The translations under genes and the position numbers were made by a program. Below, piece by piece: positions 17,608 to 17,636 of a stretch of 64,000 nt of DNA. The notes beneath the pieces are model-generated. The model did no database searches. It was not told where the DNA came from and worked only from the letters and a program-made list of their open reading frames with translations. Source of the DNA: Clostridia bacterium (GTDB taxonomy: Bacteria; Bacillota; Clostridia; TANB77; CAG-508); NCBI GenBank assembly GCA_017510245.1, contig JAFWNQ010000013.1, forward strand, positions 3,361 through 67,360, written 5' to 3'. Numbering within the stretch: the stretch's first letter is position 1; each line of letters opens with the position of its first letter.

Positions 17608-17636
17608 TTGATAATTTACATAATTTGTGATATAAT
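17608..17636 (+). promoter_or_regulatory. Strong sigma-A promoter with extended -10 (TTGATA-17-TGaTATAAT) driving the high-GC gene 17716
   Basis: Near-identical to the promoter at 58855-58883 (ATTTACATAAwwTGTGATATAATATA shared). Confidence 0.55.

Follow-up and report, generated by a model that had tools for sequence, protein, structure and literature searches.

A candidate promoter-leader module ahead of two GC-rich small-protein islets in an AT-rich Clostridia genome

Firmicutes mRNAs can be stabilised from their 5' untranslated regions by stem-loops or by elements resembling Shine-Dalgarno (SD) sequences, as in the ermC and aprE leaders and in the cry3A STAB-SD. The mRNAs of type I toxins such as hok/Sok have a global fold with pairing between their 5' and 3' ends, and they encode membrane peptides of <60 amino acids (aa). 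Within AT-rich genomes, GC-richness has itself served as a guide to structured RNAs, which is the principle behind GC-IGR discovery (PMC6429828). Here we describe two loci that recall each of these systems in a 64-kb stretch of DNA (hereafter the window, ~28% GC) from the AT-rich gut Clostridia genome of an uncultured "Clostridia bacterium" assembled from a metagenome.

Just two long stretches of the window reach a GC content of at least 0.42 (17651-18025 and 58901-59900), and each is preceded by one promoter site. We refer to them as islets A and B (Table 1). The similarity between the two loci extends past the promoter, through the leader, and up to the ribosome-binding site. The claim of an earlier note on this DNA that one common module stands ahead of both high-GC islets therefore holds, the shared part being promoter and leader together. 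The reading that we favour, and that we hold with evenly balanced confidence, is that a single expression module, specific to this lineage, is present here in two copies and serves mRNAs that are heavily structured, are probably long-lived, and encode small proteins.

Table 1. Coordinates of the features of islets A and B within the window.
Feature	Position	Strand	Description	Basis
Islet A promoter	17608-17636	+	-35 TTGATA 17608-17613, 17-nt spacer, TG 17628-17629, -10 TATAAT 17631-17636	Direct reading and pattern statistics
Islet A leader RNA	17643-17715	+	P1 17654-17665 with 17680-17691 (12 bp, one mismatch, 14-nt loop)	MFE folds, pairing table
Islet A leader, 3' part		+	P2 GAC 17693-17695 with GTC 17700-17702; SD AGGAGG 17704-17709	
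ORF A	17716-17949	+	77 aa, IKG56_02590 hypothetical, GC 0.51, GC3 0.64	
Islet A terminator-like hairpin	17968-18016	+	~21 bp, then A/U-rich sequence, no clean U-tract	
Palindromic element, left copy (decayed)	58735-58790	.	~60 nt, brackets islet B	Repeat search
Islet B promoter	58855-58883	+	-35 TTGCAG 58855-58860, 17-nt spacer, TGn, -10 TATAAT 58878-58883	
Islet B leader RNA	58888-58958	+	P0 58888-58894 with 58913-58919; P1 58901-58910 with 58930-58939	Folds, pairing table, covariation
Islet B leader, 3' part		+	P2 GAC 58939-58941 with GTC 58946-58948; SD GGAGGG 58949-58954	
ORF B1	58959-59354	+	131 aa, GC3 0.45; NCBI IKG56_02770 starts at second ATG 58965, 129 aa	
Duplicated leader 3' piece GAAGACATTGACGACTATCGGAGGGTGAC	59389-59417	+	Ribosome-binding region of B2; 94% identical to 58930-58963	Repeat search
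ORF B2	59418-59813	+	131 aa, GC3 0.56, B1 paralogue (42% aa identity)	
Palindromic element, right copy	59817-59877	.	Arms 29 nt, 97% complementary	

By analogy, the module appears to resemble most closely the 5' stabiliser leaders of Firmicutes mRNAs, and the global folding of the islets appears to resemble that of hok-type mRNAs. As in the stabilisers, the host is Gram-positive and the region near the 5' end contains a hairpin together with a GA-rich, SD-like element (GAGAAGG); if the analogy holds, the message would be expected to be highly expressed and shielded from RNase J or RNase Y decay that depends on the 5' end. Unlike in the stabilisers, the islet leader is conserved across unrelated cargo, its SD-like element is base-paired, and the coding body is GC-rich and folded as well. 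Moreover, the leader hairpin P1 does not stand at the very 5' end but begins ~12 nt from the presumed end, a greater distance than in classical 5'-terminal stabiliser hairpins. With hok/Sok mRNAs, the islet transcripts share a compact and stable form, a paired start region, and a predicted long-range 5'-3' helix, but their products are soluble-looking proteins of 77-131 aa and no antisense RNA was identified. At 77 and 131 aa, acidic or beta-rich, and with no hydrophobic segment on reading, these products fall outside the type I toxin-antitoxin systems. Finally, the islets are GC-rich in a 28% GC genome and have strong predicted RNA structure, as GC-IGR RNAs do, whereas they differ from such RNAs in being protein-coding under purifying selection, with a non-coding part that consists of the 75-nt leader only.

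Direct reading confirmed both promoters reported in the earlier note, each with its extended -10, and both sites have the arrangement of sigma-70/sigma-A extended -10 promoters (TTGnnn, 17-nt spacer, TGA, TATAAT). The stretch that opens with the -35 hexamer and closes 3 nt beyond the -10 (17608-17639 versus 58855-58886) has 27 identical positions out of 32. The reported similarity thus stands, with its count of 28/33 off by about one, and over the full strings given there the identity is 27/35. The spacers alone agree at 15 of 17 positions, whereas the 37 other -35/-10-like sites of the window with a 17-nt spacer agree with the module at 3-11 of 17. In the whole window, the pattern ATTTACATAAWWTGTGATATAAT has two matches, A and B only, even when three mismatches are allowed; dinucleotide shuffles give 0.04 expected matches, and two matches were reached in 0 of 100 shuffles. 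Transcription of islet A would start at ~17643, about 7 nt downstream of the -10.

The possibility that the pair merely reflects a generic consensus, which the earlier note had raised against its own proposal, received a divided answer: inside the window no other site matches equally well, in favour of a module, but many do across the clade. Specifically, the degenerate promoter 23-mer was found at more than 118 loci of species-representative genomes, mostly from low-GC uncultured Clostridia, and TTG occupies the exact -35 position in 46 of the 122 matches listed (~2 expected by chance, from a composition estimate). Among the matches listed, the exact A 23-mer and the exact B 23-mer each occur six times elsewhere, before unrelated genes. 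The genes behind the matches listed are likewise unrelated, one being a tRNA, and the leader is present in none. With these 23-mers standing ahead of unrelated genes across many low-GC Clostridia, there is no need to regard the promoter core as a transplant, contrary to what had been proposed; judged from sequence, it is a recurrent strong-promoter form of low-GC Clostridia. The trait specific to the islets is the combination of promoter and leader, and the transcribed leader is their distinctive shared part. Another organism (L138) offers a distinct example of a promoter-leader module in several copies: there, the identical promoter 23-mer and an identical short leader (TTGCACACAAAAGGCTAATCAGCCTTAATAAAAACAC...) stand ahead of each of four tandem paralogous genes (- strand).

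The islet leaders are ~75 nt long and consist of a hairpin P1 (10-12 bp), a mini-hairpin P2 (3-4 bp, GAC-N4-GUC), and a GGAGG SD. They come in two types, which differ in their P1 strands (UUAUGYCU.CUC / GAG.AGGCAUAA in type A, CAAUGUC.CU / AG.GACAUUG in type B), in the P1 loop, and in the context of the SD. Type-B leaders only have an additional 7-bp hairpin at the 5' end, P0, whose 3' arm lies inside the P1 loop; P0 and P1 could possibly form an H-type pseudoknot, and the outer P0 pair covaries in the sister lineage L014 (U-A to A-U). The P2 of islet B has an alternative GUCG/CGAC pairing around the SD. A covariance model (R1) scored 70.6 bits at islet A (17654-17709) and 63.4 bits at islet B (58901-58955); scans with it returned only these two copies in the window and 0 in 118 loci of other Clostridia. 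With a model built on A leaders only (R2), the B leader was the best non-self match (23.3 bits, E ~3e-4), the runner-up in the 64 kb reaching 10.5 bits.

Across nine distinct leaders, P1 and P2 are 90% paired, and this falls to 31-51% if the partner column is shifted. In three pairs, both sides have changed (U-A/A-U; U-G/C-G/U-A; G-C/U-A), with U-G intermediates among the nine leaders. These pairing and covariation values were reached by just 1-11 of 500 shuffles, in a sample whose nine leaders represent ~3 clades and hence few events. Within a type, leader identity is 0.90-0.96 (0.92-0.96 between islet A and the sister locus L015), compared with 0.44-0.84 for the ORFs and 0.34-0.76 for neighbouring intergenic DNA. 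Greater conservation than the surroundings, together with compensatory pairs in nine sequences, is what is seen in cis-regulatory structured leaders generally, and the alignment gives good support, short of conclusive given the small sample, to the leader being a genuine RNA element. At the gathering threshold, Rfam 15 returned a SAM riboswitch and tRNA only in the window, with no leader family, and E-value scans of both islets returned only spurious hairpin (miRNA) matches on the terminators.

The U-G intermediates in P1 indicate that RNA pairing is favoured over DNA pairing, and any common regulation is therefore more likely to act at the leader RNA. This bears on the suggestion that the shared spacer is a DNA operator (TTACATAA / TGTGATA) at which one repressor or activator would co-regulate both loci at initiation. 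The spacer is indeed far closer between A and B than at any other promoter-like site of the window, and it is largely conserved in the sister lineages. However, the half-sites are not kept in L014 (ACAAAATTATGG) or in L015 (TTGATGG), no regulator gene is linked to the loci, and the occurrence of the same 23-mers before unrelated genes, including the tRNA, in many low-GC Clostridia points to intrinsic strong-promoter architecture. Regulation of both loci by one DNA-binding protein, as put forward in the earlier note, consequently strikes us as highly improbable.

Could the leader instead be a sensor? A riboswitch, an RNA thermometer, or a leader-peptide attenuator would gate the ribosome-binding site by ligand, temperature, or ribosome stalling. 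In type A, the CUCCUCC in the 5' strand of P1 is complementary to the AGGAGG SD, which makes an SD-sequestering alternative fold possible, and in type B the SD sits in a small hairpin. An invariant AUG in the 5' strand of P1 also opens mini-ORFs (window positions 17657-17671 and 58903-58961, and the leaders of L014 to L209). Against this, the anti-SD element is missing from type B, and a universal anti-SD switch was rejected for that reason. The leader has one long hairpin, P1, whose loop is variable, and one mini-hairpin, but no conserved multi-helix junction or unpaired core of the kind typical of aptamers; the Rfam searches gave no match either. The mini-ORFs are not preceded by an SD and are inconsistent in length, spanning 3-19 codons (MSPP*, MPPP*, MPS*, MSSF*, and one of 19 aa); in L018, the mini-ORF is fused in frame to the main ORF, giving the 100-aa gene call P0006. 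With no SD and with neither length nor sequence conserved, leader-peptide attenuation was ruled out. Overall, we see little prospect of a sensor here and retain the shared leader of a common expression module as the preferred reading.

The coding bodies depart from the host as much as the leaders do. GC3 is 0.45-0.75 in all nine islet ORFs (those of the window and of the sister lineages), versus 0.13-0.18 in host genes. Compared with dinucleotide shuffles, the folding z-scores of all nine are -1.5 to -5.3, whereas host segments range from -0.95 to +1.6. Compared with synonymous-codon shuffles, the nine ORFs reach z-scores of -1.96 to -5.3 (mean -3.5; ORF A -1.96, B1 -3.25, B2 -4.61) against a host mean of -0.54 over 13 segments (Mann-Whitney p = 2e-4, for nine islet ORFs that are phylogenetically non-independent and belong to two families). 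Among the 13 host controls, two are well folded too (z -3.4 and -1.9), and so is one of two family-B homologues that lack the module (L202, z -3.6; the other is not). The stronger of the host outliers is a membrane-protein-like ORF of 140 aa (13897-14319, +). In the A family, the consensus fold of five transcripts contains 87 pairs, 29 of them doubly changed, and is 89.5% paired versus 35-43% when slid, a comparison biased in its favour by scoring an alifold structure on its own source alignment. Helix 13 of that alignment, the hairpin at the end of islet A, has nine pairs changed on both sides.

From these values, selection for mRNA folding appears to keep the islets GC-rich, and it is the sole explanation of the composition with direct support in this analysis. 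The islet genes had been called foreign in the earlier note, and their composition does set them apart from the host as described. Recent import is another matter: GC3 has stayed high despite saturated synonymous change, and a simple recent import with later drift to the host composition therefore does not fit.

Folding of this extent also raises an RNA-centred function, in which dual-function or toxin-antitoxin-like RNAs would be kept inert by global folding, as in hok-type mRNAs, with the ORF secondary. The whole islet transcripts fold with z-scores of -5.4 and -10, and in islet A a 9-bp helix, with one double change, is predicted between the 5' end and the 3' end of the ORF; the start codon lies within helices. 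Nevertheless, the ORFs fill the transcripts and are clearly under purifying selection, the proteins are not short hydrophobic toxins, B belongs to a broad protein family, and no antisense partner was identified, all of which makes this the least credible of the readings considered, with hardly any weight in our assessment. The better-supported reading remains that of structured messages expressed for their proteins through a common module.

Purifying selection is evident in both families (dN/dS 0.09-0.29; 0.09-0.15 for ORF A versus its orthologues), and these values rule out non-coding islets. The two families are unrelated, as the earlier note had supposed: homology between A and B was rejected with an hhalign probability of 1%. 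Family A has five known members, and ORF A had no match in Pfam, PHROG, NCBIfam, PADLOC, or a PDB sequence search. Family B has 353 representatives at E < 1e-3; searches of Pfam, PHROGs, NCBIfam, PADLOC, and PDB sequences were uninformative, the PHROG matches being weak. No PADLOC defence HMM matched A, B1, B2, P0185, or P0009 at E <= 1. An AF2 model of family B from a 61-sequence alignment (pLDDT 96) has two tandem small beta-barrels; with a 3-sequence alignment, the N-terminal domain reached pLDDT 53 and was not usable. The N-terminal barrel superposes on small uncharacterised cyanophage/T4-like phage proteins (1.3 A over 62 residues, 29-35% identity). This likeness is to weak matches to PF27001, phrog_3426, phrog_2063, and phrog_2023 and to BFVD models from Synechococcus/T4-like phages, where PF27001 (Phage_T4_Y07B) is a precomputed "weak" match and hmmscan of a local Pfam copy gave nothing at E <= 1. 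Unlike the small phage proteins, family B comprises two-barrel proteins of ~125-130 aa from bacterial chromosomes. Foldseek against the PDB returned only insignificant tandem SH3/Tudor/KOW-like matches.

Promoter and leader precede every A or B homologue retrieved from the sister metagenomic lineages, in three ORF groups (L014, L015, L016/17, L018, L199/L205, and L209). Amino acid identity to A is 79% in L015, 62-69% in L016/17 and L018, and 46% in the 88-aa variant of L209; L014 is 50% identical to B1, and L199/L205 are 60% identical to B2. The islets occupy the same loci in these lineages, upstream of tex and next to an argE-like gene or a tRNA-Gly. They were recovered with the same AT-rich flanks on no fewer than 5 independent contigs for A and no fewer than 11 for B, which rules out an assembly chimera. 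In the window, the tRNA-Gly(TCC) (17452-17525, -) is divergent from islet A and has its own promoter-like site (~17566, minus strand), unlike the module; at the sister locus L016, the same tRNA-Gly lies downstream of the islet in the same direction. Just upstream of islet A, there are prepilin-like ORFs (N-terminus MKNFKRKELNSSNGITLIALVITIIVLLILA; 16041-16713, -) and a short XRE-type HTH-like ORF fragment (17117-17287, +), which may be element remnants beside the tRNA.

Islet B has changed more than islet A. At L205, synteny with the window is full, yet there is a single ORF, and B2 is the orthologue of the single ORF in L199/L205. In front of B2, the 3' third of the leader is repeated and gives a weak covariance-model match (59372-59414); the B1/B2 tandem is thus a duplication that took only that part of the leader. 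The two copies of the palindrome around the islet (GCAATTGGGGACGCCCCTTTTCTGCACA / TGTGCAGAAAAGGGGCGTCCCTAATTGC) have no others in the window, and both are missing from the syntenic locus L205. The right copy is likely, from its sequence, to be the transcription stop of islet B. Like the hairpin of islet A, it is long and stable and followed by mixed A/U with no clean U run, whereas T-runs follow the hairpin in the orthologues L016, L018, and L209. Between lineages, the terminator-like 3' hairpins of the islets differ.

The islet ORFs have a dS of 1.3-2.3 (saturated), versus 0.5-0.8 in the adjacent tex and argE-like genes, and between L018 and L209 both flanks are 0.92-0.96 identical while the segment from P1 to the stop codon is 0.34-0.66 identical. 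Therefore, the islet ORFs either have a higher rate of evolution than their surroundings or represent old alleles that are exchanged. Ahead of the promoter, the hairpin that terminates the preceding gene carries its loop in opposite orientations in these two lineages (L018 ~250-285 GGAACCGTCCC versus L209 ~45-80 GGGACGGTTCC).

On the one hand, such differences are what would be expected of a mobile or exchangeable cassette, in which promoter, leader, ORF, and terminator travel together, or leader and ORF are swapped between conserved arms, with recent foreign cargo from a GC-richer donor pool; the module would then be the expression signal belonging to the cassette itself. The GC3 far from the host value, the excess of dS over the adjacent genes, the L018/L209 contrast, the upstream neighbours that vary between lineages, and the gain of a second ORF in islet B, bracketed by palindromes that L205 lacks, all agree with it. 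The islets also resemble integron or promoter-equipped cassettes in having unrelated small ORFs behind a common signal, a non-host composition, and two tandem ORFs at one locus. On the other hand, they are unlike integrons in lacking an integrase, attI, and attC, in having their conserved element upstream of the ORF and transcribed, and in loci that are fixed in the sister lineages. The neighbouring genes (GIY-YIG, CDF transporter, GH30, Tex, and DNA-alkylation-repair genes) include no integrase, which sets the loci apart from integron cassettes; no integrase, transposase, or attC-like site was seen among the Pfam-annotated neighbours of islet B, those of islet A having been inspected as ORF translations only.

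Searches beyond the lineage pointed in the same direction. The leader pattern was found in none of 2.9 M viral contigs, and 241 M metagenome records held one true match, from the same lineage, and 54 chance matches. BLAST against plasmids and phages gave no match, nor did tblastn of family B against 50,697 phage records, and in other genomes family-B genes are close to their hosts in GC content and carry different leaders. Furthermore, import alone leaves the arrangement of codons for folding unexplained. A cassette is thus an unlikely account of the islets, though less so than an operator or a sensor. The common vector suggested in the earlier note finds no direct backing in loci that have no recombinase nearby, are shared with the sister lineages, and carry a leader that viral contigs and metagenomes did not yield outside the lineage. 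In L202, from a genome of 31% GC, a family-B homologue (P0009, ~3320-3690 and 4001-4381) closely follows a tmRNA-like gene and is flanked by repeated GGGACG-containing palindromes, an arrangement that suggests an island at the tmRNA site.

If both sites are indeed copies of one expression module, it would join a near-consensus sigma-A extended -10 promoter to a conserved structured leader of ~75 nt, at the head of units that hold one or two cistrons and close with a long hairpin. Its cargo would be small cytoplasmic proteins from unrelated families, namely A (77 aa), the divergent A variant (88 aa), and B (131 aa, tandem beta-barrels). From a strong constitutive-type promoter, such units would yield compact, GC-rich, hairpin-bounded messages that resist RNases and are unusually long-lived in an AU-rich host of the RNase Y/J type. 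We infer that P1 and P2 would serve as a shared handle that sets the stability of the 5' end, access to the SD and translation initiation, or both. The handle might act intrinsically or through one trans-acting RNA-binding factor; either way, the loci would make up a small regulon controlled post-transcriptionally. That the proteins diverge quickly while their flanks stay conserved suggests that they have a role in conflict or immunity.

A bolder version, which we regard as speculative and rather unlikely, is that the islets represent an undescribed class of "armoured" coding RNAs. The module would then mark messages whose whole body is selected for base-pairing and thereby stays GC-rich in a 28% GC genome. 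Such messages might persist where AU-rich mRNAs are destroyed, during dormancy or sporulation or under RNase attack induced by toxins or phages, or they might act as RNA. The leader would be the handle for a specific RNA-binding partner, and the hypervariable proteins would be immunity or anti-phage factors.

Should the favoured reading be correct, the leader would be a new, narrowly distributed 5'-leader RNA motif. A very AT-rich bacterium would be keeping a few genes GC-rich through selection on mRNA folding and not through recent import, which would advise caution against reading GC-rich islands as horizontal transfer. The islets would provide a natural blueprint for very stable Clostridia messages. 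Lastly, two or three fast-evolving families of small proteins, one of which shares a domain with uncharacterised proteins of T4-like phages, would be expressed via a common RNA handle and would therefore probably be functionally linked.

Two further features of the window lie apart from the islets. The SAM (S-box) riboswitch (10239-10337, +; 77 bits) is located upstream of an ORF at 10405-11553, and a giant ORF of 2559 aa (43611-51290, +) has a slightly raised GC content (0.31-0.35).
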